Part shown: piece after piece, positions 27,243 to 54,252 of the stretch
Layout of the letters: every line of letters begins with the position of its first letter
Numbering within the stretch: the stretch's first letter is position 1
Program-made: the position numbers and the translations under genes
Source: Thermoplasmata archaeon
GTDB taxonomy: Archaea; Thermoplasmatota; Thermoplasmata; Lutacidiplasmatales; UBA184
Assembly (NCBI GenBank): GCA_030038095.1
Contig: JASHPK010000035.1
Span: 26 to 64,025 of the forward strand
Direction of reading: 5' to 3'
DNA length: 64,000 nt
The notes under the pieces: generated by a model
The model's input: only the letters and a program-made list of their open reading frames with translations
Database searches by the model: none
Told to the model about the DNA's origin: nothing

Positions 27243-27250
27243 TATTTATA
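27243..27250 (+). promoter_or_regulatory. Strong TATA box (TATTTATA), ~52 nt upstream of the aglB ATG.
   Basis: ggctatttatacaccc within the 108-nt spacer after the DUF35 gene. Confidence 0.5.
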
Positions 27251-27301
27251 CACCCCCTAGGTCTCGCGCGCCGCTGAACCACACAGGGTAGCCGGTTGCT
27301 C

Positions 27302-30300
27302 ATGGAATCGACGCACACAGGGTGGTGGAAACGCCACGGATGGACGGTGGCGATCCTCCTCGCCGCCTTCGGTTCAGCGTTCGCCATCCGGACGATCTGG
27401 ACGTACCCGATCGTCGCGCAGTACGGGGCGCTCTACACGTACGCGGGGGGCTCGGACTCGTACTACCACTCGCGCGTGATGGCCGACATCATCCTCACGC
27501 ACTCGAACCTCATCCACGATCCGCTGCTCAAGTACCCGACCGGGGCGATCAACCCGCGGGAGCCGCTTTTCGACTGGATGAACGCGATCCTCGGGATCAT
27601 CTTCGCCCCGTTCTTCGGCGGCAGCGCGGTCGGGGCCGGGGCCTGGTTCCTCGACCTGGACGGTCCGCTGTGGGCCGCGCTCAGCATCTTCCCGATCTAC
27701 CTCATCGGTCGCGAGATCAGCGACCGCCGCATGGGCCTCATCGCGGCGATGATCTATCCGTTCCTCTCCGCGAGCATCGATTCGTCGATCTTCGGCTACG
27801 CGAACTACCTCTCGTTCTACACGTGCATCATCCTCGTCACGGTGTACGCTTGGATCCGGACCGTCAAGGCCGTCGGGTCCCGGCGGTGGGTCGAGAGCTA
27901 CCGCCACCCGAGTCAGTACTGGCCCGCGCTCCGCGCCTTTTTGCGGACGGAACGGTCCGCCGTGAAATGGGCGGTCTTCACCGGGGTGTCGCTCGGGGCG
28001 CTCGCGCTGTCCTGGCAGGGGTACACGTACGCGGTCGTCGTGATCGGTCTCGGCGTCCTGATCTCAATGGTCGCCGAGCGGATCCGCCACGTCGACTCCT
28101 TCGGCCTCTACGTCGCGGCCTGGATCACCGGCGGCATCGGATTCGGGATGGAGTTCCCGTACTACTTCGTCCAGTACGGCGGGGTCACGCCCGGGTTCGT
28201 CGCGTTCTTCGTGATCCCCGCGGTCGTCCTGTTCGGGATCCTGCTCCTGCTGCTCCCCTTCCTCCTGATGCGCGACGTGCCTTGGGTCTTCTCGCTGCCG
28301 TTCCTCGCCGGGATCGTCCTCGCCGGGGTGGCGGCGCTCGCGGTCTTCGACCCGAACGACTTCACCACGATCGTCACCGGGCAGGGCTACTTCATCAAGA
28401 GCCTGATCTACTCGACGGTCGCGGAGGCGCAGGCGCCCTCGATCGACCAGCTGATCATCGGCTACGGCGTCGTCACCTTCTTCCTCGCGTTCGTCGGCGT
28501 CGCGCTGTTCGTCTACGTCCTGATCCGCGGCCGCTTCAAGCGCCAGCACGTGGCGTTCCTCGTCTTCGCGATCCTGTCGATCTACCTCCCGATCACGGCC
28601 ACGAAGTTCTTCCTCGTCGCCTCCCCCGCGTTCGCGCTCCTTCCGGCCGAGGCGATCTACCGCGCGCTGCGGATCGGGCGGTACCCGGAGCTCCGACGCA
28701 CGGTGGCCTCGCTCTCGGATCGTCGGAGTCAGTTCGCCGCATTCCGCAAGGCGTTCAAGCCGCGGCACGTCCTCGTGATGGCCCTGGTCGTCCTGATCAT
28801 CCTCCCGAACGTCTGGGTCTCGATCGACGCCGGGATCCCGGGCAACACGAAGACCCAGTTCGGGGAGCAGGTCGGGGCCACTCTTCCCACCTGGCTGCAG
28901 CTGAACACCTCGAACCCGGGACAGTACTACTTCGGCGCCGCCGGCACGAGCCTCGATACTCCGAACCAGTACGATAGTGCCGGGTACAATTGGCTCGCCA
29001 CGCAGGACACCAACATCCCGCCGGCCGATCGTCCGGCGCTGATCAGCTGGTGGGACTACGGGTTCCAGACCATCGACCAGGGCCAGCATCCGAGCGTCGC
29101 CGACAACTTCCAGAACGGCATCGATCCGTCCGGCCAGTTCCTCCTCTCCCAGAACGAGTCGCAGGCGATCGCGGTCCTGACGATCACGCTGCTCCAGGGG
29201 GAGCAGCGGGCGAGCGGCGAGCCGTACCTCCCGCCGGCCCTCAACCGGATCCTGGCGTACGATGGGCTGAACCTGGCGACGCTCCACAACCTGATGGTGA
29301 ACACGAGCGCCGACCTCCCGCTCGTGATCAACAACCCCCAGAAGTACCTCCCCGTCAACCCCAGCACGATCACGGCGGACAACGCGATGTACCTCGCGAC
29401 CGAGGTGTACATCGCGAGCGCGCTCCCCCTCGCGGGGGTCGCGCAGGTCTACGACAACGTCCAGCAGTACACGGGCTGGTCGATCCGCTACGTCCTCGCG
29501 GACAGCCGACTCTTCCCGTTCAGCGGCACCGACACGGGGATCTACTACGCTCCCGCGGACCTCACGGGCCGGGTCATCAACGCCGCGGGCGAGCCGACCA
29601 CCTTCTTCAACGTCACGGTCCTCGGCTCGGACGGGAACACGTACCCGATCGGTCAGCTCCCCGCGGACGTCTCGGCGGTGAACTACAACATCAACTATTT
29701 CGCGCCGTTCTACAACTCGATGATCTACCGAACGTACATCGGGTACAACGGGACGGACATCGGGCTCGGGTCCGGGATTCCGTGCCTCACGCTCAACTGC
29801 TCGTCCGCCCCGCTCGAACCCGGCTGGATGCTCCAGCACTTCCAGATCGTCTACATGACGTCGTACTACTGCCCGGCCCACAACGCCCCGAGCGGGTCCT
29901 CCTGCTTCTCGGCGACGAACAAGCCGACGGCGCTGGCCCTCGCGAAGGCCGACAACGGAACGGCCGACACGAGCGCGGCGAGCTACTTCTCCGGGGGCGA
30001 GACGATGCTCGAGTACTTCCCGGGTCAGCCGCTGGTCGGCTCGGTCGTCACCTCGGACGGTACCCCCGTGCCGGGGGCCCACGTCACCGTCGACGACTCC
30101 TGGGGGATCCCGCACGATAGCGTCGTGACGGGCGCGGACGGCTCGTTCTCGGTCGTGCTGCCGCCCGGGAACGACACGGTCAACGTCACGATGGGCACGT
30201 TCGACCAGCTGAAGCAGCAGGGCAACATCATCCTGAAGAGCGTCCCGATCGACGTGCCCGAAGCGGTCGGGATGAGCTTCAATGCTCCCAGCCGCATGAT

Positions 30301-33300
30301 GAACGTCGTCCTCCCCGGCGCGACCGTCGGGGGTTCGGTCTACTGGAACATCGCGAACAACACGACCTACTCGCTCGGCGACATCAACGTGCCGGGGGCC
30401 CAGGTCGTCCTCTGGGGGACCGGGGGCCTCTCCAAGCTCACCGCGACGACCGACGTGAGCGGGACCTTCGCCCTCTCGAACGTTCCCCCGGGCGTCTACA
30501 ACATGAGCGTCCTGTACCAGGGGGCGAACTTCACCGAGGCCTCCGTCTACGCGGAGCCGGGCAACTTCTCGAACGCGACCGCCGGGCTCACCCCGGCGTC
30601 GATCACGGGGCTGTTGAGCGAGCCCGGCGGCGCGACCTCGACCGCGGCCGTCGCGGTCGTGAACTCCTACGGCCTCGCGATCTCCAACGTATCGAACTCG
30701 TCGGGCTACTACCACCTCACCGGACTCGGTCCGGGCAACTGGACGCTCTCGGCGTCGATCCCGGGGACGGACCTGAGGTCCCCCGGGCTCCAGTTCAACA
30801 TCTCGAAGCCGGGCACGAAGCTCTCCTTCAACCTCACGCTCGCGCCGAGCGTCGCCGTCACCGTGACCGCGGTCGCGAACGGGGCGCCGGCGGGCGGCGT
30901 GCCCGTTCGGTTCTCGGTGCTGTCGAGCTACCTCAACAGCTCGATCTCCCCGATCGGGGTGCTCTCGGCGGCGAGCGCGAACACGACCGTGGTGACGACC
31001 GATCCGAGCGGCGTGGCCACCGTCTACCTTCCGGCCGGCAACTACTCCGTGTACGCCCTCGGCTACGTGGGGAGCACCCTGTACGCCGGTACCACCGAGC
31101 TCACGGCGCTTCCGGCCGTCGGACCCAGCAGCGCCGTCCTGACCCTCTCCCCCGCCATCCGTCTCACGGGCACGGTTTCGGGCGGAGCGAGCCTCGGCAA
31201 CACGACCCGGACCGCGGTCATCGCGTACTCGAATTCGGCCACCGAGGTCACGGCCTGGGCGATGGCGAACGGGACGTACTCGTTCCTCCTCCCCCGGGGC
31301 AACTATAGCCTGCTCGCGCTGCGCAGTGCCTCCTCGGGCACGGGGGCGGTCTACGCGGCGCTCGGCGGGGTCGTGCTGACGGCCCCGTCCCAGGTGCCGC
31401 TGACCCTGTCGAGCGCGGTCGTGGCCCGATTCACGGTCGGCGCCGCGCTGCCGAGCGGAGCGTTCTTCCCGGCGGCGGCCGCCCAGGTCTCGATCTCGCA
31501 GGGGACGGGCGGGGCGAGCGTCCCGGTCGTGGCGAGCTCGTCGGGTCAGGTGGCGCTCTACCTGCCGTCGAGCCTGCCGCTCTCGTCGCCGACGTACTGC
31601 GTGTCGGCCCAGTCGATCGGCTTCTCGACGGCGAGCGATTGCGGTCTGACTCCGTCCTCCCTCGTCGCCCTGAGCCAGCTGCCGCTCCAGCTGCTCCCCG
31701 TCTCGGTGACGCTGCGGGTCGTCGGGCTTCCGCTCGGAGTCCCGGTCACGGTGAACCTGACGGCGGAGAGCGAGACCGCGCAGAACCGGACCCTCAACGG
31801 CGGGCCGGTCTTCTCGTTCAGTCAGGCGCCCGGGGTCTACGGGGTCGGCGCGCGCGCCACGCTCTCGAGCGGCAAGGTCGTCTACCTCCCGTCCTCGATC
31901 CTGCAGACGACGATCCCAATCGGCGCGACCACGACGGCGCTCACTCTCGGGCTCATCGCCCAGATCAACGCGACGGGGACCCTCTCCGTGCCGAGCGGCG
32001 TGAACGTCTCGCGCGTGAACATCTCCCTCTCCTCCCCGTTCCTGAACGTGAGCGTCAACGGCACGAACTACACGCACGGCTTCCGCGTGGCCCCGGGGAC
32101 GTACTCCGCGTACGCGAGCCTGAACTTGAACGGCACGCTCTACACGGACCTCTCCCGGGTGACGGTCGGTTCGAACGGGACGATCTTCCCGACGCTCGTC
32201 CTCAACACCCTCGCGGTCAAGGTCCAGGGATCGCTGAACTCGCCGTCGCATACGCTCCTCGAAACGAACCTGAACCTCACCCTCACCGCTCCGAGCGGCG
32301 CCTCGACGACGGTCGAGACCACGCAGGGCGCCTGGGTCGTCGACCTCCCGCCGAACACCAACTACTCGGTCCGCGCCTCCTCGTACTCGACGATCTCGGG
32401 GCCGAACGGCACGTACCAGGCCTACTGGACGACGAACGCGAGCGCGAGCTGTCTCGTCGGCCCGGGGCCGACGGACTGCAACCTGACGCTCTATCCCACG
32501 ACGATCTCGGTGCCGGTCACGCTCACCCTGAACGCGACCGGGATTCCCGGCCTCCAGCCCGGTTCGGTGCGGATCGTCGGACCCTACCCGTTCGCCAACG
32601 TCACGGTGCTCTCGACCACGAACGGGACGGTCGTCTCCGAGGTCCTGCCGGGGGCCTACTCGGTGTACGCGACCGGCGGCGGCGCGAGCAGTCCGCTCGC
32701 CGGGTTCGGCTCGTTCGTCGCCCTCCCATCGAGATCGGGTCCGTTCGCGATCTCCCTCGTCCCGGCGTGGATCGACGCGGTGCGGATCCTGACTCCGATC
32801 GGCACGTCGACGGGGCTCAGTCCGGCGAACCTCACGGTCCGCAACGCCGTCGGCACCACGGTCACGTTCACGAACGTGAGCGAGGGCCCGGTCGTTGACC
32901 TGGCCCTCCCGGTCGGCCGGTACACGATCTCCGCCTCGGCGATCGGGCGGCCGTACGGCGTCGCGACCGAGGCGACCGCTCGGGAGAACGCGACGCTCGT
33001 GAGCGGGAACCTCGCCACGAACCTCCAGCTCGTCTACCGGTTCCACCCGTCGGTGACGGGGACGGTGCTCGGGAGCTCGACCGTCACGGTGAGCGCCGGG
33101 GGCGTCGCCACCTTCAGCTATTCGGTGCGGAACACCGGCAACGAGCCGGTGGTCGTGCACGCCGTCGGCTCCCCGGCGTTCTGGGGCTTCAACTTCAGCG
33201 CGGGCAACCTCTCGCTCGGAGTCGGCACCGGACCGGTCGGGGAGACCGTCACCATCCACGTGCCGGCCGGCACGGCCGTCACGCACTCCCCGGTGGCGAT

Positions 33301-33910
33301 CTCGTTCGAGAACTCGACGAACGCGGTGGTGGGATCGGTGACGCCGGCCCCCGTCGTGAGGGTGCTCGGGTACTACGGCATCTCGGTCGGCACGAGTCCG
33401 AGCCTTCCGGCGGAGATCGGCAACGATCGGGCCCGGGCGCTCTTCTACGCCACGGACACCGGCAACCAGCCCGAGAGCGTTGTCTTCAGCGTCGTCAATG
33501 CGGGCCTGCTCTCGAGCTACGGCTGGAAGACCCAGATCGCGGAGAACGGCAAGAATCTCTCGAAACCGCTCTACCTGCAACCGAGCGGGAACTCGACGCT
33601 CACGGTCTACGTCAACGCGTCCAGCTCGATCTTCGTGCCGCCCCAGTACGTGACGGTCGCGGCGAGCGTGCTGAACGCGTCGGGGGCGGCCTCCGGGTCG
33701 GTGACGATCTCCCTCGCGATGATCTCCGTGAACACGACGAGCACGAACGGCTCCGCTCCGATCACGATCACCGGTCCCTCGATCGGCACCCCGCCGAACG
33801 TCCTGCCGGACTGGCTCATCGCGCTGCTCGCCTTCGTCCCGACGATCGCGCTGATCGCGCTGGTCCTCCTGTACCGCTGGAACCGCACTCGGAGGTGGTC
33901 GCGCCGATGA
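27302..33910 (+). CDS. aglB: Giant archaeal oligosaccharyltransferase AglB (STT3). It carries a ~1,300-aa C-terminal extension of repeated beta-sandwich (CarboxypepD_reg-like) domains and a terminal TM anchor.
   Basis: Uninterrupted ORF (track 27296..33910; ATG at 27302). The N-terminus is polytopic, with the catalytic WWDYGFQ motif at nt 29048-29068. Repeats of the type GSVVTSDGTPVPGAHVTV...TGADGSFSVVLPPGNDTVNVT begin at ~nt 30020. The C-terminus is PDWLIALLAFVPTIALIALVLLYRWNRTRRWSRR. Confidence 0.9.
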   Translation: MESTHTGWWKRHGWTVAILLAAFGSAFAIRTIWTYPIVAQYGALYTYAGGSDSYYHSRVMADIILTHSNLIHDPLLKYPTGAINPREPLFDWMNAILGIIFAPFFGGSAVGAGAWFLDLDGPLWAALSIFPIYLIGREISDRRMGLIAAMIYPFLSASIDSSIFGYANYLSFYTCIILVTVYAWIRTVKAVGSRRWVESYRHPSQYWPALRAFLRTERSAVKWAVFTGVSLGALALSWQGYTYAVVVIGLGVLISMVAERIRHVDSFGLYVAAWITGGIGFGMEFPYYFVQYGGVTPGFVAFFVIPAVVLFGILLLLLPFLLMRDVPWVFSLPFLAGIVLAGVAALAVFDPNDFTTIVTGQGYFIKSLIYSTVAEAQAPSIDQLIIGYGVVTFFLAFVGVALFVYVLIRGRFKRQHVAFLVFAILSIYLPITATKFFLVASPAFALLPAEAIYRALRIGRYPELRRTVASLSDRRSQFAAFRKAFKPRHVLVMALVVLIILPNVWVSIDAGIPGNTKTQFGEQVGATLPTWLQLNTSNPGQYYFGAAGTSLDTPNQYDSAGYNWLATQDTNIPPADRPALISWWDYGFQTIDQGQHPSVADNFQNGIDPSGQFLLSQNESQAIAVLTITLLQGEQRASGEPYLPPALNRILAYDGLNLATLHNLMVNTSADLPLVINNPQKYLPVNPSTITADNAMYLATEVYIASALPLAGVAQVYDNVQQYTGWSIRYVLADSRLFPFSGTDTGIYYAPADLTGRVINAAGEPTTFFNVTVLGSDGNTYPIGQLPADVSAVNYNINYFAPFYNSMIYRTYIGYNGTDIGLGSGIPCLTLNCSSAPLEPGWMLQHFQIVYMTSYYCPAHNAPSGSSCFSATNKPTALALAKADNGTADTSAASYFSGGETMLEYFPGQPLVGSVVTSDGTPVPGAHVTVDDSWGIPHDSVVTGADGSFSVVLPPGNDTVNVTMGTFDQLKQQGNIILKSVPIDVPEAVGMSFNAPSRMMNVVLPGATVGGSVYWNIANNTTYSLGDINVPGAQVVLWGTGGLSKLTATTDVSGTFALSNVPPGVYNMSVLYQGANFTEASVYAEPGNFSNATAGLTPASITGLLSEPGGATSTAAVAVVNSYGLAISNVSNSSGYYHLTGLGPGNWTLSASIPGTDLRSPGLQFNISKPGTKLSFNLTLAPSVAVTVTAVANGAPAGGVPVRFSVLSSYLNSSISPIGVLSAASANTTVVTTDPSGVATVYLPAGNYSVYALGYVGSTLYAGTTELTALPAVGPSSAVLTLSPAIRLTGTVSGGASLGNTTRTAVIAYSNSATEVTAWAMANGTYSFLLPRGNYSLLALRSASSGTGAVYAALGGVVLTAPSQVPLTLSSAVVARFTVGAALPSGAFFPAAAAQVSISQGTGGASVPVVASSSGQVALYLPSSLPLSSPTYCVSAQSIGFSTASDCGLTPSSLVALSQLPLQLLPVSVTLRVVGLPLGVPVTVNLTAESETAQNRTLNGGPVFSFSQAPGVYGVGARATLSSGKVVYLPSSILQTTIPIGATTTALTLGLIAQINATGTLSVPSGVNVSRVNISLSSPFLNVSVNGTNYTHGFRVAPGTYSAYASLNLNGTLYTDLSRVTVGSNGTIFPTLVLNTLAVKVQGSLNSPSHTLLETNLNLTLTAPSGASTTVETTQGAWVVDLPPNTNYSVRASSYSTISGPNGTYQAYWTTNASASCLVGPGPTDCNLTLYPTTISVPVTLTLNATGIPGLQPGSVRIVGPYPFANVTVLSTTNGTVVSEVLPGAYSVYATGGGASSPLAGFGSFVALPSRSGPFAISLVPAWIDAVRILTPIGTSTGLSPANLTVRNAVGTTVTFTNVSEGPVVDLALPVGRYTISASAIGRPYGVATEATARENATLVSGNLATNLQLVYRFHPSVTGTVLGSSTVTVSAGGVATFSYSVRNTGNEPVVVHAVGSPAFWGFNFSAGNLSLGVGTGPVGETVTIHVPAGTAVTHSPVAISFENSTNAVVGSVTPAPVVRVLGYYGISVGTSPSLPAEIGNDRARALFYATDTGNQPESVVFSVVNAGLLSSYGWKTQIAENGKNLSKPLYLQPSGNSTLTVYVNASSSIFVPPQYVTVAASVLNASGAASGSVTISLAMISVNTTSTNGSAPITITGPSIGTPPNVLPDWLIALLAFVPTIALIALVLLYRWNRTRRWSRR

Positions 33911-34755
33911 GCCTTCGCCGATCGGCTCCTCGCGTCGCCATCGTCCTCGCCCTGCTGCTCACCGCCGCGGTGCTCGCCTCCGCCCTCGCTCTTCCGACCA
34001 GCGGCCGAAGCCCGGCGACCTCGCCGCTCGCCACCGCGGCGAACCCGGTCACCGCCTCGGTCGGCGGCACGCACCTCATCGGGGTCGGGGGCCATGCCGG
34101 CTACTTCTTCAACGCGACCGGCGGCCCCGCGTATGCCGCGAACGGCTCGCGGGTGGGGAACCTGACCTACTACGCGAGCGTCTCGGGGACGAACACCACG
34201 GGAGTGACCCTCAACCCCGACCAGGAGGCGATCTTCAACGGTTCGTCCTCCGTCTCGACCCTCACCGTGAACTCGGTGCCGCAAACGCTGACGATCAACG
34301 TGATGTTCAGCTCGGTCTACCGGGGGGCGAACGAATCGGTGAACCTCACCTACACCGTCAACATCGTCGCGCCGTACGTCCTGTCGGCGACGATCGTCGA
34401 CGTCTCCTCGTCCGACGTGATCAGCTTCCCCGTCGACATCTACCTCGACGGGAATTTCGTCGGGAACGTCACGGTCTCGACCCTGAGCCCGAGCACGCCG
34501 TACCACTTCTCGTTCGATTACCTGACCCTCGGCCTCTCGCCGGGGTGGCACACGTTCTCGATCTCGCTCGCGAGCGAGCACGGGCTCGTCGTCTTCGCGG
34601 GCGGCGCCACGTCGTTCTCCCAGTCGTTCTACGTTCCCGGACCGGCCCCGAACTACACCCTCTGGTACATCGTCGGGATCGTCGCGTTCGTCGGGACCAT
34701 CTTTATATTGCTCACTCGGGTGGCCGCGCGCCGGCGGGGCGCGGCGCGCAAGTAG
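33907..34755 (+). CDS. Secreted, C-terminally anchored sequon-rich protein (putative N-glycoprotein).
   Basis: ATGA overlap with the aglB stop. It has a signal-like N-terminus (MSLRRSAPRVAIVLALLLTAAVLASALA), 9 NxS/T sequons by eye, and a C-terminal TM plus basic tail (WYIVGIVAFVGTIFILLTRVAARRRGAARK). Confidence 0.7.
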   Translation: MSLRRSAPRVAIVLALLLTAAVLASALALPTSGRSPATSPLATAANPVTASVGGTHLIGVGGHAGYFFNATGGPAYAANGSRVGNLTYYASVSGTNTTGVTLNPDQEAIFNGSSSVSTLTVNSVPQTLTINVMFSSVYRGANESVNLTYTVNIVAPYVLSATIVDVSSSDVISFPVDIYLDGNFVGNVTVSTLSPSTPYHFSFDYLTLGLSPGWHTFSISLASEHGLVVFAGGATSFSQSFYVPGPAPNYTLWYIVGIVAFVGTIFILLTRVAARRRGAARK

Positions 34756-34779: not shown

Positions 34780-34959
34780 ATGACGATGTCCGGACGGGTC
34801 GACCTACGGTGCAGCTCCTGTGGCCGGGCGCTGCCCGGGCCCGGCGGGACCCAGTTCCCCTGTCCGCAGTGCGGGGAGGCGACCATCGGGCGGTGCGCCC
34901 GGTGTCGCGACCAGAGCGTGAACTACGCCTGCGGCAAGTGCGGCTTCGAAGGGCCGTAG
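34780..34959 (+). CDS. Four-CxxC zinc-finger micro-protein (COG2888-like), 59 aa. Below the ORF-track cutoff.
   Basis: My translation: MTMSGRVDLRCSSCGRALPGPGGTQFPCPQCGEATIGRCARCRDQSVNYACGKCGFEGP*. GC3 is high. It lies directly upstream of aEF-1beta, a pairing I recall as conserved in archaea. Confidence 0.7.
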   Translation: MTMSGRVDLRCSSCGRALPGPGGTQFPCPQCGEATIGRCARCRDQSVNYACGKCGFEGP

Positions 34960-34975: not shown

Positions 34976-35242
34976 ATGGGCCAGGTCGCGGTGCTCTTCC
35001 GCCTGATGCCCCGCGGCGTGGAGACCGACATGCGCGCGCTCGCTCAGGGCGTGCGCGCGGCGGTCCCCGACGGCGTGACGATCCGCGGGATGCAGGTGAA
35101 GGACATCGCCTTCGGGTTGAAGAGCCTCCTCGTCTCCGTCGTGATGGCGGACGCGGGCGGCGTACTGGAGTCGACCGAGCACGCCCTCGCCAAGGTCCCC
35201 CACGTCGAGTCGGTCGAGGTGATGGAGGAGGGGCTGATCTAG
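34976..35242 (+). CDS. Translation elongation factor aEF-1 beta.
   Basis: MGQVAVLFRLMPRGVETDMRALAQGVRAAVPDGVTIRGMQVKDIAFGLKSLLVSVVMAD...VESVEV. The size (88 aa) and pattern are typical. Confidence 0.88.
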   Translation: MGQVAVLFRLMPRGVETDMRALAQGVRAAVPDGVTIRGMQVKDIAFGLKSLLVSVVMADAGGVLESTEHALAKVPHVESVEVMEEGLI

Positions 35243-43918: not shown

Positions 43919-44029
43919 ATGGCTGTCGGCGGAATTCGGGTCCCAGAAGCTCCCCCGCAGGGTTATACTTCGGAGGAATACGCATAAATACGCAACTCAC
44001 GCTTGTTGTCTCCAACCCTGGGATGCTCC

Positions 44030-44650
44030 ATGGCAGGTCGCATGCAGCGCCGAACGGTCTACGCCGCGACGATCGTGACCCTCCTCGCCCTCGCGGGGGG
44101 CTGGGCGTTCGCGGCCGGCACGATTCACTCGAGCGGGCCGGCCCAGAACTCGAAGATCACGGTCACCGCTCCGAACGGGTTCACGGACGCCTATGTCCAG
44201 TCGACCCAGCTGATCCAGGTCTCGAGCGGCCTCCTCAACTCTACCTCCCCTGCGGGGACCCAGCCCGTGAGCAGCCACGGTCTCAACTCGAGTTACCAGA
44301 CGAACGCCATCCTGCCGAGCTGCTCGGGGAACGCCTGTCTCGCGAACTACTCGGCGGTCGACCCGTCCCACGCCCTGACCGCGGGCGACACCGCGCTCCA
44401 GGTGGCCCTGCAGGTCAACCAGACGTCGACGGCGAGCGGCTTCGACATCCAGGTCGAGATTCTGATGGCGAGCGGCTTCTACAACTTCGGAAGCGGCTAC
44501 TTCGACACGGCCACCGGCACCACCTTCGTGTGGGTCTTCCTCTACGTGGATCTTGGGGTGAACCCCATCACGACCCCGCTCTCGGGCGACATCGTCTCCG
44601 ACATCGTCGTGACGTTCAACTCCTGCTCGTCCGCGACGACCTGCCCGTGA
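44030..44650 (+). CDS. Hypothetical secreted/anchored protein with several sequons and Cys pairs.
   Basis: MAGRMQRRTVYAATIVTLLALAGGWAFAAG signal/anchor. A Ser/Thr/Asn-rich body carries NST, NSS, NYS and NQT sequons. A TATA-like ATAAATA lies at 43984-43990. Confidence 0.55.
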   Translation: MAGRMQRRTVYAATIVTLLALAGGWAFAAGTIHSSGPAQNSKITVTAPNGFTDAYVQSTQLIQVSSGLLNSTSPAGTQPVSSHGLNSSYQTNAILPSCSGNACLANYSAVDPSHALTAGDTALQVALQVNQTSTASGFDIQVEILMASGFYNFGSGYFDTATGTTFVWVFLYVDLGVNPITTPLSGDIVSDIVVTFNSCSSATTCP

Positions 44651-51952: not shown

Positions 51953-52044
51953 ACCTGGCGGACCGATCGGTTCGTTCGTCCTCTCCGAGGTACGAGGGTA
52001 CCGCGGGACCCGACCTTATCTAGGGGCGGGGAGGTCGCCGGCCG

Positions 52045-54252
52045 ATGGCGGCCGAGAGCGACCACGCCTCGCCGGAAGGTTCCCGTCGGACGGGCCGGTG
52101 GTGGACCCGGGAACGGACGATCCTCGCCGGGATGGTCGTCGCCTTCGCGGCCCTTTCGTTCTATGCGGGGGTCGTGTCGTACATGAATCTCCAATCGGAC
52201 AACGCCACCGACCTCGGCATCTTCATGCAGGCGGTCTCGTCGACGGTCCGAGGGGGACATCCGGCGCCGTTCTTCGAGACCTACGACTGCCTTTCGAAGT
52301 TTCGATGCTCCTTCCTCCTCGTCCACCCGTCGCCGTTGCTGTACGGCGTGGTCCCGATCTACGCGATCCTCCCCAGTGCCTACACGCTGTTCGCGATCCA
52401 GTCCGTAGGGGTCGCCCTCGCCGCCCTCCCGCTGTACGGGCTGACGCGCCGCGCGACGGGGTCGGGCACGAAGGGCCTCGTGGCGGCGGGCCTCTACCTG
52501 GCCTGGGCCCCCACTCTCGGTGGGGAGGCGTTCTCCTTCCACATGGAGTCGTTCCTGCCGGTCACGCTACTCTCGGTCGCGTACTTCTGGCAGGTCCGCC
52601 GATATCGGCTCGGTCTCCTCGCGGCGCTCGCCGCCTTCCTGACGATCGAGGTCGCGCCGATCTTCACGTTCCTCATCGGCGTGTTCTTCCTGATCCCGTA
52701 CGCGGTGTCCGCCTTCCGTCTGTGGCGCGCGCGACGCAAGGATCCGGGCCCGAGCGGTTTCAGATCCTCGGTCCGCTACTGGGGAGGTAGGCTTCGCTCG
52801 ACCCTCGGACGCGTCGAAGTGCGCTACACGCTGCTCTTGCTCGGAATCTCCGTCGTCGCGTACGCGATCCTCTACCTTTTCATGAACGTCTTCGGGGCGA
52901 GGCTCCTCGGGGTGTCGCCGCCTCCGATCCCCCCGGGGCTCGGCGGGGTCTTCTTCAACAACAGCACGCCCGGAATCTCGCCCCTGACCACGACGCTCGC
53001 GAGCCCCCAGCTGGTGCTGACGCTCGAATTCTGGCTGATCCTCTTCGCGCTCGCAGGGTTCATTCCCCTCCTGGCGCCCCGCAGCCTCGTGGTCTCGATC
53101 CCTTGGGTCGGGTGGACCTTCCTCACGAACTCGAACCGCTTCACGACGATCGGTCACCAGTACACGCTGGTGGCCGCAGGGCCGATCTTTTTTGGAGTGG
53201 CGTACGGCCTGCGCCGGATCCCGATCGGGCGCGGGGGGCCGGCGCCCGCGGACTCCACCGCTCCGACCTTCGTCTCCCGTCCGGCCCGTCCGCGCCGAGC
53301 CCGCCGGAATTCGGTGATCGCGGCGGGGTTCGTGATCGCCCTCGTCGGAGCGAACGTGCTCTTCCTTCCCATCGACCCGGCCCTCTCGTCGCTCGGCGTA
53401 AATCTGGGGGCACCATTCGAACCGGGGTACCAGATGCACACGCTCCTCCTCCGTCCCGGGTTCTCGGACGTGGAGGAGCTGCTCTCCGAGATCCCCCACA
53501 ACGCGTCCGTGACCGCGCCCTACCAGGTCTTTCCGCTGATCGCGAACTTACCCTACGCCGTCGTCTTGATCTCGGGGGCCGACAAGGAGGACTTCAGCAC
53601 CCTCCCCGAGAACATCTCGAACAATCCCTCGTACGTGGTCCTCTACCCGAGCTTCTATCCCCTATGGCGGGGGCCGTTCAAGGGGAACGTTTCGGACCCT
53701 TCGATGTACGACGTCCGGGCCTACGTCACCTCGACGACCGTGGGACCCCTCTTCCTCTACGAGCGCGGCTACACCGGCCCGCCGACGCTGATCGGGTCCC
53801 CCTTTCCCCCGTACTCCGCCACGCTCCTGCCGGAGCACGGACTGACCGCCGGGGGGATCGGTGAAGTGCGGGCGAACGCCTCATCGCCCTCCGGCGAAGT
53901 GATCACGACCCGACCGCAAGCCCCAGCGATCGGGGAGCTCTGGCACGGCCCCGATACCACGCTCCCGGCGGGGAGCTACGATGTGACCGCGATGGTGAGC
54001 GCGACGTTCGTCGAGCCGAACGCTACGCATCGCTCCACGCTCCTGCGAATCGAGTCGAGCGGCCCGAGCTTCCAGAGCGAGAACGCGACGTTCCCGCCGT
54101 CCGACTTCGGAAACGGGACCTGGACGAACGTCTCGTTCGAGGTGTCCACCGCGGTGCCGATCCTGGACTTCACGATCTCGGGCTTCCTCGAGATCGCGTC
54201 GGTCGAGTTCGCGGTCGCCGAGGTCACGCTTACGCCCGTGACGGCCCCTTGA
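52045..54252 (+). CDS. DUF2079-family polytopic membrane protein (GT-C-like putative glycosyltransferase) with a large extracytoplasmic C-terminal domain.
   Basis: N-terminal ~450 aa have many TM helices and DUF2079-like motifs (DLGIFMQAVSS, LLVHPSPLLY). The C-terminal ~280 aa are soluble and contain sequons. Confidence 0.7.
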   Translation: MAAESDHASPEGSRRTGRWWTRERTILAGMVVAFAALSFYAGVVSYMNLQSDNATDLGIFMQAVSSTVRGGHPAPFFETYDCLSKFRCSFLLVHPSPLLYGVVPIYAILPSAYTLFAIQSVGVALAALPLYGLTRRATGSGTKGLVAAGLYLAWAPTLGGEAFSFHMESFLPVTLLSVAYFWQVRRYRLGLLAALAAFLTIEVAPIFTFLIGVFFLIPYAVSAFRLWRARRKDPGPSGFRSSVRYWGGRLRSTLGRVEVRYTLLLLGISVVAYAILYLFMNVFGARLLGVSPPPIPPGLGGVFFNNSTPGISPLTTTLASPQLVLTLEFWLILFALAGFIPLLAPRSLVVSIPWVGWTFLTNSNRFTTIGHQYTLVAAGPIFFGVAYGLRRIPIGRGGPAPADSTAPTFVSRPARPRRARRNSVIAAGFVIALVGANVLFLPIDPALSSLGVNLGAPFEPGYQMHTLLLRPGFSDVEELLSEIPHNASVTAPYQVFPLIANLPYAVVLISGADKEDFSTLPENISNNPSYVVLYPSFYPLWRGPFKGNVSDPSMYDVRAYVTSTTVGPLFLYERGYTGPPTLIGSPFPPYSATLLPEHGLTAGGIGEVRANASSPSGEVITTRPQAPAIGELWHGPDTTLPAGSYDVTAMVSATFVEPNATHRSTLLRIESSGPSFQSENATFPPSDFGNGTWTNVSFEVSTAVPILDFTISGFLEIASVEFAVAEVTLTPVTAP

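Follow-up and report, generated by a model that had tools for sequence, protein, structure and literature searches.

The window analysed here comprises 64,000 nucleotides (nt) of contig JASHPK010000035.1, from a Thermoplasmata archaeon of the Lutacidiplasmatales (assembly GCA_030038095.1). On its plus strand lies a gene for a 2,202-amino-acid (aa) protein in which an oligosaccharyltransferase (OST) of the AglB/STT3 kind is continued by an array of beta-sandwich domains and a second, C-terminal membrane anchor; we refer to it as the giant AglB. Its stop codon overlaps the start of another open reading frame (ORF), ORF2, which codes for a further anchored protein. N-glycosylation has one universal enzyme, AglB/STT3, which in prokaryotes is assumed to work alone, as one chain of about 600-1,050 aa; the proteins of P. 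furiosus and H. volcanii have about 970-1,050 aa. The features of the two genes are the following (TM, transmembrane; HMM, hidden Markov model).

27302..33910, plus strand: giant AglB gene, 2,202 codons plus TGA stop (33908-33910)
27302..28831, plus strand: STT3-type membrane domain, aa 1-510, with 13 hydrophobic segments at aa 14-508 (Pfam, TIGR04154, hydropathy)
28832..30016, plus strand: external globular AglB domain, aa 511-905, with WWDYG (Pfam AglB_core-like at aa 531-626; PDB matches 3VU0 and 3VGP)
29048-29062, plus strand: WWDYG, aa 583-587 (WWDYGFQ at 29048-29068), kept in nearly all of 140 aligned representatives
30017..33706, plus strand: array of about 13 beta-sandwich domains, aa 906-2135, with 49 sequons (Pfam, iterated HMM, AlphaFold2)
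30032-30271, 30326-30586, 30602-30838, 30959-31141 and 31163-31396, plus strand: CarboxypepD_reg/prealbumin-like repeats 1-5
31709-31930, 31973-32197, 32222-32458, 32516-32755 and 32789-33016, plus strand: CarboxypepD_reg/prealbumin-like repeats 6-10
Outside the repeat profile, plus strand: further beta domains, one at about aa 1370-1465 and two at aa 1915-2135 (nt 33044-33706)
33815..33871, plus strand: C-terminal TM helix, aa 2172-2190, hydropathy 2.96
33872..33907, plus strand: predicted cytoplasmic Arg/Trp tail YRWNRTRRWSRR, after the TM helix
33907..34755, plus strand: ORF2, a 282-aa type-I membrane protein with 9 sequons, its start overlapping the stop of the giant gene
ORF2 aa 7-26, plus strand: signal or anchor helix
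34051-34635, plus strand: two beta-sandwich domains of ORF2, aa 49-243
34657-34752, plus strand: TM helix and RVAARRRG tail of ORF2, aa 251-282

The giant gene and its relatives

In DNA with the G+C content of the window (70%), a long ORF is in itself little proof of a gene, and codon-position composition was therefore checked. The G+C content at third codon positions (GC3) stays at 0.89-0.99 in all 300-nt bins of the giant frame from 27296 to 33895, and the coding signal changes frame at 33896, exactly where the stretch of the next ORF starts. For the gene as a whole GC3 is 0.95, that of the Hsp70 and PFOR genes of the window. The start is the ATG at 27302, with an in-frame TTG also at 27296. 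About 50 nt 5' of this ATG, within the 108-nt gap that follows the upstream gene, a TATA-like box (TTTATA, 27246..27251, plus strand) may act as promoter element. Across from the giant gene, the minus strand has an open frame of 1,838 codons (28064-33580); with a G+C content of 0.95 at first codon positions (GC1) and 22% Arg in its 1,838-aa product, it was rejected as a true gene and classed as a shadow of the high-G+C coding DNA.

Among 5.8 billion proteins searched, relatives number 417, counted as clusters at 90% identity. More than 120 homologs are 2,180-2,211 aa long and align along 99-100% of the query. The best 120 of the 417 are all 2,109-2,211 aa long, with 96-100% query coverage and 53-64% identity, and they stem from NCBI, ENA, JGI and Logan assemblies; a protein of about 2,190-2,205 aa recurs in independent assemblies from these four sources. 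At the junction of AglB half and array (aa 801-1000) the homolog alignment is 59-63% identical and has no gaps. A frameshift or missed stop near nt 30000 was rejected in view of the continuous coding signal, the full-length homologs and this gap-free junction. The 2,202-aa fusion is a real single gene and not an assembly artefact; an earlier reading made from the letters of this DNA (the sequence-only reading), which had described one uninterrupted frame of about 2,200 aa, was right in this. When 21 homologs were aligned, identity was 63-77% in the AglB half and 35-59% in the extension, which has less than 1% gaps; the AglB half is the slower-evolving and better-conserved half.

In a scan of one genome per species, the full-length gene was present in at least 80 GTDB species. 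The carriers are all metagenome-assembled genomes (MAGs) of Thermoplasmata from soil, peat and similar samples, and they include Candidatus Lutacidiplasma silvani. In G+C content and type of genome there is agreement with the Lutacidiplasmatales (PMC9287336). When 1.84 billion 50%-identity representatives were searched exhaustively by HMMER, aa 1-900 matched 580 of them, the best 150 of which are mostly 2,000-2,775 aa long at an identity of only 30-41%; homolog lengths, which the sequence-only reading had proposed to plot, agree with it in close and distant relatives. Where the distant giants are named in databases, the name is 'carboxypeptidase regulatory-like domain-containing protein [Thermoplasmata archaeon]', and automated names such as this one hide the family. 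In the distant relative P0133 (2,083 aa), the extension is colinear with that of the query over 1,384 aa at 30% identity, and all giant relatives inspected with a complete C-terminus end in a TM helix and a basic tail. The fusion is therefore old, and much of the class Thermoplasmata has it as its usual AglB.

It had been allowed beforehand that the architecture might turn out to be both common and annotated. By the two counts given above (417 clusters, at least 80 species) it is common, but it is annotated only generically. Full-text searches, the Lutacidiplasmatales genome paper and its supplements included, found no description of giant AglB fusions. As far as searched, the protein is of a known kind (AglB/STT3), and what is undescribed is its architecture, its dedicated partner and the rebuilt active site of the query's clade.

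Catalytic site of the AglB half

Pfam STT3 (PF02516) covers aa 48-459 of the giant (E 6e-6; 26.5 bits vs a cut-off of 24.5) and NCBIfam TIGR04154 (archaeo_STT3) matches aa 17-752 (E 1e-61). Residues were mapped via P0133, which aligns to the sequence of A. fulgidus AglB-L (AfAglB, PDB 3WAJ) over residues 14-607: the 3WAJ-P0133 alignment was used first and then that of the query with P0133, gap-free through the catalytic region. Two landmarks fix the register, namely YLIGRE, which precedes the motif in external loop 2 (EL2) by 35 residues, and a shared S-I-(L/F)-G-(F/Y) stretch. By this chain, AfAglB D47, R154, D161, H162, H163, E360 and R426 correspond to D52, S161, N168, Y169, L170, E375 and K435 of the query.

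27455..27457, plus strand: D52 in EL1, motif GGSD-SYYH, equivalent by the alignment chain to AfAglB Asp47 (PglB D56); kept in nearly all of the 140 representatives
27782..27811, plus strand: EL2 motif S161-S-I-F-G-Y-A-N168-Y169-L170, standing where the canonical R-S-x-x-G-x-x-D-H-D/H metal-binding motif would be
28415..28426, plus strand: T372-V-A-E375, the EL5 'TIXE' motif with the catalytic Glu (AfAglB E360), this Glu being kept in nearly all representatives
28604..28606, plus strand: K435, at the position of AfAglB R426 (PglB R375); Arg in 49/49 DHD-type relatives compared

The position of AfAglB R426 and PglB R375 we take to be that of the conserved Arg of the lipid-phosphate site. In PglB, the second DXD-type motif with its preceding Arg has its counterparts in R147, D154 and D156. 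In AfAglB, D47 and E360 form the catalytic pair, and D161, H163 and R154 are additional metal-coordinating residues (PMC7226087). The sequence-only reading had spoken of a normal AglB. Its WWDYGFQ is there in the sequence at nt 29048-29068, but normality does not hold for the query's clade, where the EL2 metal-binding motif and R426 are replaced.

Among the aligned representatives, positions 168-170 read D-H-D in 84/140 and N-Y-L in 9/140. The carriers of N-Y-L are the query's clade, down to 39% identity, and N-Y-L is invariant within it. When this clade was compared over aa 1-640 with 49 close D-H-D (or D-W-D) relatives, 11 columns were found to be fixed differently; these include 168, 169, 170, 373 and 435, and they cluster at the active site. 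The change at 373, from Ile to Val in the TIXE motif, is specific to the clade, and that from R426 to K435 is conservative. Within the clade no variation is seen at D52, E375 or WWDYG or anywhere in the EL5 stretch. Because the fixed active-site columns are few, the AglB half evolves slowly and sequons are equally enriched in N-Y-L and D-H-D giants (see below), we read these changes as remodelling and not decay: the metal site and the lipid-phosphate site have been altered in a fixed and concerted way. Acidic residues in EL1 (E87, D91) were considered as compensating ones and discarded, their distribution not following the N-Y-L state.

Other sub-clades of giants are likewise without D-H-D. 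'S-D-G-R-M-H-T-P' occurs in at least 14 representative clusters (P0175-type, e.g. L090:33-6359), and there are G-Y-D and L-F-D variants. As non-D-H-D variants are found in several sub-clades, active-site remodelling has taken place more than once in the giant AglB family.

In the external domain, Cys857 and Cys868 are invariant among close homologs. A DK/MI motif, which would adjoin the Ser/Thr pocket, with a clear DxxK or MxxI at the usual spacing was not seen in the giant, the candidate being a conserved T-x-D693-N-A-M696-Y stretch. About 30 residues past WWDYG, the sequon N-E-S (aa 618-620, 29153-29161) is invariant in 21/21 close homologs and is also present in distant P0133. Yeast Stt3 has a conserved glycan near WWDYG, which contacts other subunits.

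Array, sequons and ORF2

Pfam CarboxypepD_reg (PF13620) recognises only three stretches of the extension (76.6 bits vs a gathering score of 32.3). An iterated profile seeded by these three domains finds ten repeats, from aa 911 to 1905, so that the sequence-only count of at least ten is reached by the iterated profile and not by Pfam alone. An AlphaFold2 model of aa 1003-2202 with eight homologs is all-beta over aa 1003-2170 and has a helix at aa 2181-2194 (pLDDT, the predicted local distance difference test, 69); together with the ten repeats it gives the C-terminal part the fold support that had been asked about. The CARDB/S-layer-like label proposed for the last domains was not upheld, as aa 1914-2133 gave no significant Pfam match, CARDB (PF07705) included. 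Among the families suggested for HMM searches, STT3 and CarboxypepD_reg were matched; CARDB stays under threshold in ORF2 and without match in the C-terminal domains of the giant.

The array has two invariant Cys pairs (1433/1447 and 1717/1726), and because of these pairs and of the positive-inside tail it is predicted to be extracellular. Anchorage at both ends, as first proposed, is borne out by the 13 N-terminal hydrophobic segments and by the TM helix at aa 2172-2190 with its basic tail; the predicted topology places the catalytic side and the array outside the cell, with both ends of the polypeptide bound to the membrane. Archaeosortase sorting signals (PGF-CTERM and related) gave no NCBIfam match in the last 70 aa of the giant or of ORF2, even at E <=10.

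The giant protein has 57 N-x-S/T sequons, close to the 55 or so counted by eye before, and 50 of them lie past aa 890, where shuffled sequences have 16.4 +/- 3.5 (about 3x enrichment). ORF2 has 9, vs 3.1 +/- 1.5 in shuffles. Density per 1000 aa is 38 in the extension and 32 in ORF2, vs 3.7 in the other 28 ORFs of the window (about 10x for the extension), and 65% of the Asn residues of the extension are within sequons, vs 18% in those 28 ORFs. Among the 21 homologs the extension has 31-50 sequons. Positions kept in at least 80% of them number 21 in the whole protein, about 17 of which are in the extension; most positions are scattered, 66/175 sequon columns being seen in a single sequence. The observed/expected ratio of extension sequons is 2.42 in N-Y-L giants and 2.47 in D-H-D giants. 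By this enrichment the extension is under selection to be glycosylated, although enrichment itself does not establish modification in cis. Because N-Y-L giants equal D-H-D giants in this respect, N-glycosylation is still under selection in N-Y-L organisms, where some OST must be active.

The stop of the giant gene and the start of ORF2 overlap as ATGA (33907-33910); this overlap, the second anchor and the 9 sequons had all been pointed out correctly. Tail codons CGG-AGG-TGG of the giant embed GGAGGT (33891-33896), a Shine-Dalgarno-like site 10 nt 5' of the ORF2 ATG. It is the sole copy in the 6.6-kb giant gene, AGG accounts for 3/69 of the Arg codons, and GGAGG stands at the same position in 43/77 related loci. 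With a Shine-Dalgarno site embedded in the last codons of the giant, the translational coupling of ORF2 is written into the DNA itself.

The AlphaFold2 model of ORF2, of high confidence (pLDDT 85.6), begins with a helix, continues with two beta-sandwich domains and closes with the TM helix at the C-terminus. Its 200 homologs are 270-290 aa long, all from Thermoplasmata and all unnamed or called 'CARDB'; against PF07705 ORF2 scores 19.9 bits (gathering score 22.7), and many homologs carry a precomputed PF07705 match. The best-conserved part among the 200 is the TM helix with the RVAARRRG tail. In related loci an ORF2 homolog lies 3' of the giant nearly everywhere, mostly with the same 4-nt overlap, as in the distant P0133 locus (pairwise E 4e-11) and in the P0135 locus, which has a canonical catalytic site; in the P0175 locus the overlap is of 1 nt, and hhalign gives the homolog a probability of 98.4%, TM helix and RRR tail included. 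A coupled ORF2 is kept in DHD-type, DWD-type and RMH-type lineages, and the pair is still found where identity is only 30-36%. ORF2 had been taken for a second substrate. It is indeed sequon-rich, anchored and coupled, but it behaves as a conserved partner: because the TM helix and tail are best conserved and the pair persists in distant lineages, it fits a subunit better than a mere substrate, and the partnership is deeply conserved. Two origins considered for ORF2 were discarded, that of an OST48/ribophorin homolog, for which Pfam and Foldseek gave no support, and that of a duplicate of the giant's last domains and anchor, to which hhalign gives a probability of only 5%.

A. fulgidus AglB-L (PDB 3WAJ/5GMY) has 868-875 aa, and the giant is 2.1-2.5x longer than characterised AglBs. 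The 13-TM STT3 core, the EL1 Asp, the EL5 TIXE Glu, the external WWDYG and the topology are common to both. What the giant has in addition is its array of about 13 beta-sandwich domains, another TM anchor at the C-terminus and a partner gene coupled to it, and in the query's clade EL2 has changed from D-H-D/H to N-Y-L and R426 to Lys. AglB proteins of 1,100-1,350 aa with one or a few CarboxypepD_reg domains directly after AglB (e.g. P0266, P0264) are found in other Thermoplasmatota and in Halobacteria MAGs, some of them within glycosyltransferase clusters; unlike the giant, they have neither a C-terminal TM anchor nor a coupled ORF2, and most are canonical DHD.

A profile search of the PDB with the extension gave NOMO2 as the best solved match (E 1e-14), and Pfam NOMO-type models match relatives of the giant. 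A specific structural relative of the array was also sought with Foldseek and not obtained, the matches being generic multi-immunoglobulin (Ig) arrays (alpha-2-macroglobulin, contactin, adhesins) with low TM-scores. NOMO, part of the BOS complex of the endoplasmic reticulum (ER) multipass translocon (PDB 9C7V), has, like the giant, about 12 tandem prealbumin/CarboxypepD_reg domains followed by a TM helix and a short cytosolic tail. Its lumenal rod of 12 prealbumin-like domains with C-terminal anchor sets ER sheet spacing (PMC11186639). Unlike the array of the giant, which is joined to an OST, NOMO stands alone as a eukaryotic protein; it carries a signal peptide of its own and has nicalin and TMEM147 as partners. 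A Pfam scan of 10 flanking genes gave no nicalin-type or TMEM147 match, no search being aimed at these two families. We regard the NOMO match as a resemblance in repeated domain type and layout and do not claim orthology. In the eukaryotic OST, STT3 is accompanied by Wbp1/OST48, Swp1/ribophorin II and Ost1/ribophorin I, type-I beta-sandwich partners with a single TM helix and short tails that are analogous to ORF2 and to the anchored array of the giant; they show no sequence or fold match to ORF2, and any resemblance would be convergent.

Readings of the locus and its surroundings

Taken as a whole, the locus probably encodes a long-form Thermoplasmata AglB with an array, a second anchor and an ORF2 partner. 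One polypeptide runs from the 13-helix STT3 core through the WWDYG sequon-binding domain into a rod or arch of fixed length, made of about 13 beta-sandwich domains, and ends in the second anchor and a short cytoplasmic tail. ORF2 is translated from the same mRNA by re-initiation at the ATGA overlap, aided by the embedded Shine-Dalgarno site, and could join the giant via its conserved TM helix and tail to give a two-subunit enzyme complex. Exposed at the cell surface, the array would be heavily N-glycosylated by its own enzyme or by neighbouring copies, and it may also belong to a glycoprotein coat or act as a membrane spacer, perhaps organising the space round the active site; we estimate a contour of about 45-50 nm for 13 domains. 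Self-glycosylation and a role as cell-envelope scaffold, both put forward in the sequence-only reading, remain inferences. We find it reasonably likely that catalysis has been retained in the query's clade, under a changed requirement for metal or donor.

Abundant archaea of soil, peat and sediment have an OST of more than twice the usual size, with an array of fixed geometry, a second anchor and a conserved partner. The giant AglB is a natural system in which to study what leads OSTs, that of eukaryotes included, to take on membrane partners of the beta-sandwich kind, and it names a likely major surface glycoprotein for these lineages. The variant without the textbook second metal-binding motif, with the other catalytic motifs kept, tests which residues are indispensable. 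A bolder version, to which we give only slight credence, sees a hetero-oligomeric OST that arose in Thermoplasmata independently of eukaryotes, composed of an STT3 with a NOMO-like rod and the ORF2 subunit, its centre rebuilt in the query's clade for another metal dependence or lipid-linked donor; an active site that faces outwards may in this way have been adapted to acidic soil. Such an enzyme would be a mechanistically new kind of OST.

Several observations weigh against the long-form AglB reading. The equivalents of the metal-coordinating R154, D161 and H163 of AfAglB are all non-canonical, and the protein could be inactive. The AlphaFold2 model of the array, from 9 sequences, is of moderate confidence at its pLDDT of 69, with an unreliable domain arrangement. 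The complex of ORF2 and giant is put together from synteny and conservation patterns, the tail of the giant owes some of its conservation to the embedded Shine-Dalgarno site, at nucleotide level and not through protein function, and two larger giants of the 'GNDPYYH' type (2,400-2,775 aa) are without a coupled ORF2. When ORF2 was compared with the PDB by Foldseek, the top 50 matches were two-domain Ig-like folds of a generic kind, with no OST48/Wbp1 or ribophorin among them. Finally, all members of the giant family belong to uncultured organisms, known from sequence alone.

The first of these points would be explained if STT3 catalysis had been lost in the query's clade, another AglB doing the glycosylation and the protein being kept as a sequon-binding factor or as a scaffold of the membrane or surface; the substitutions would then be those to S, N and L at the metal-coordinating residues and to K at R426. 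The TIGR04154 score, at 209 bits far under the curated whole-protein cut-off of 450, also speaks for such a loss, and it marks the giant AglB as a divergent subfamily. We consider such a loss unlikely. D52, E375, WWDYG and the EL5 stretch are invariant in the clade, change is slower in the AglB half than in the extension, the substitutions are few and fixed, unlike drift, and selection on sequons persists, so some OST must be active. With a canonical Thermoplasmatota AglB of 1,290 aa as query, a second AglB was not found on the same contigs, which is a weak test.

The enzyme might also be fused simply to its own tethered substrate, modified in cis, with ORF2 as a second substrate and no further role for the extension. 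The strong sequon enrichment in the extension and ORF2 and the placing of active site and extension on the same membrane side speak for it. We nevertheless hold it to be improbable, given that the length of the extension is near residue-exact across hundreds of lineages, unlike that of fast-evolving surface repeat proteins, that ORF2 is best conserved in its TM helix and tail and not in its ectodomain, and that the lack of conservation of most sequon positions, with 66/175 columns in single sequences, fits a general coating over a cis mechanism.

More doubtful still is an extension that is itself an S-layer protein or the stalk of one, with a fusion that ties lattice assembly to glycosylation. 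It would suit a large, C-terminally anchored, sequon-decorated beta-domain protein, and the GC3 of 0.95, the same value as for the Hsp70 and PFOR genes, may be a sign of strong expression. No S-layer family of Pfam or NCBIfam matches the giant, however, its Foldseek matches are generic Ig-like arrays, a 1:1 ratio of enzyme to lattice protein would be unusual, and the envelope of these organisms is not covered in PMC9287336. An assembly or annotation artefact joining two genes near nt 30000 has practically no probability, refuted as it is by the homolog alignments, with the gap-free junction at aa 801-1000, the agreement of independent assemblies and the continuous coding signal.

The neighbours of the giant/ORF2 pair are genes for homocitrate synthase, aconitase, IDH, thiolase, aS21, EF-1beta and YdjM, in an arrangement that relatives share; these metabolic and translation genes rule out the context of an agl gene cluster. 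Other ORFs of the window that touch on translation or on the cell surface are listed here.

34780-34959, plus strand: 59-aa ORF with a four-Cys zinc ribbon, 24 nt past ORF2; its homologs in related loci are Pfam Ribosomal_aS21
34976-35242, plus strand: EF-1beta, 16 nt past the aS21 ORF
43988-44650, plus strand: 220-aa ORF with no Pfam match, with low GC1 like surface proteins and 4 sequons (18 per 1000 aa)
52024-54252, plus strand: DUF2079 predicted membrane protein, 742 aa, with 11 sequons (14.8 per 1000 aa, 4x window background)

As the order giant-ORF2-aS21-EF1beta-YdjM is kept in relatives, the OST pair may be co-transcribed with translation genes. The 220-aa ORF may code for another surface glycoprotein. 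DUF2079 is a GT-C-type family, and the protein at 52024-54252 may be another component of envelope glycosylation. In a distant lineage, a giant AglB of 2,775 aa has as its neighbour a protein of 4,565 aa (L085:1-1810, minus strand) that combines transglutaminase-core, CarboxypepD_reg and PKD domains, and very large beta-sandwich surface proteins seem to be common in these archaea.

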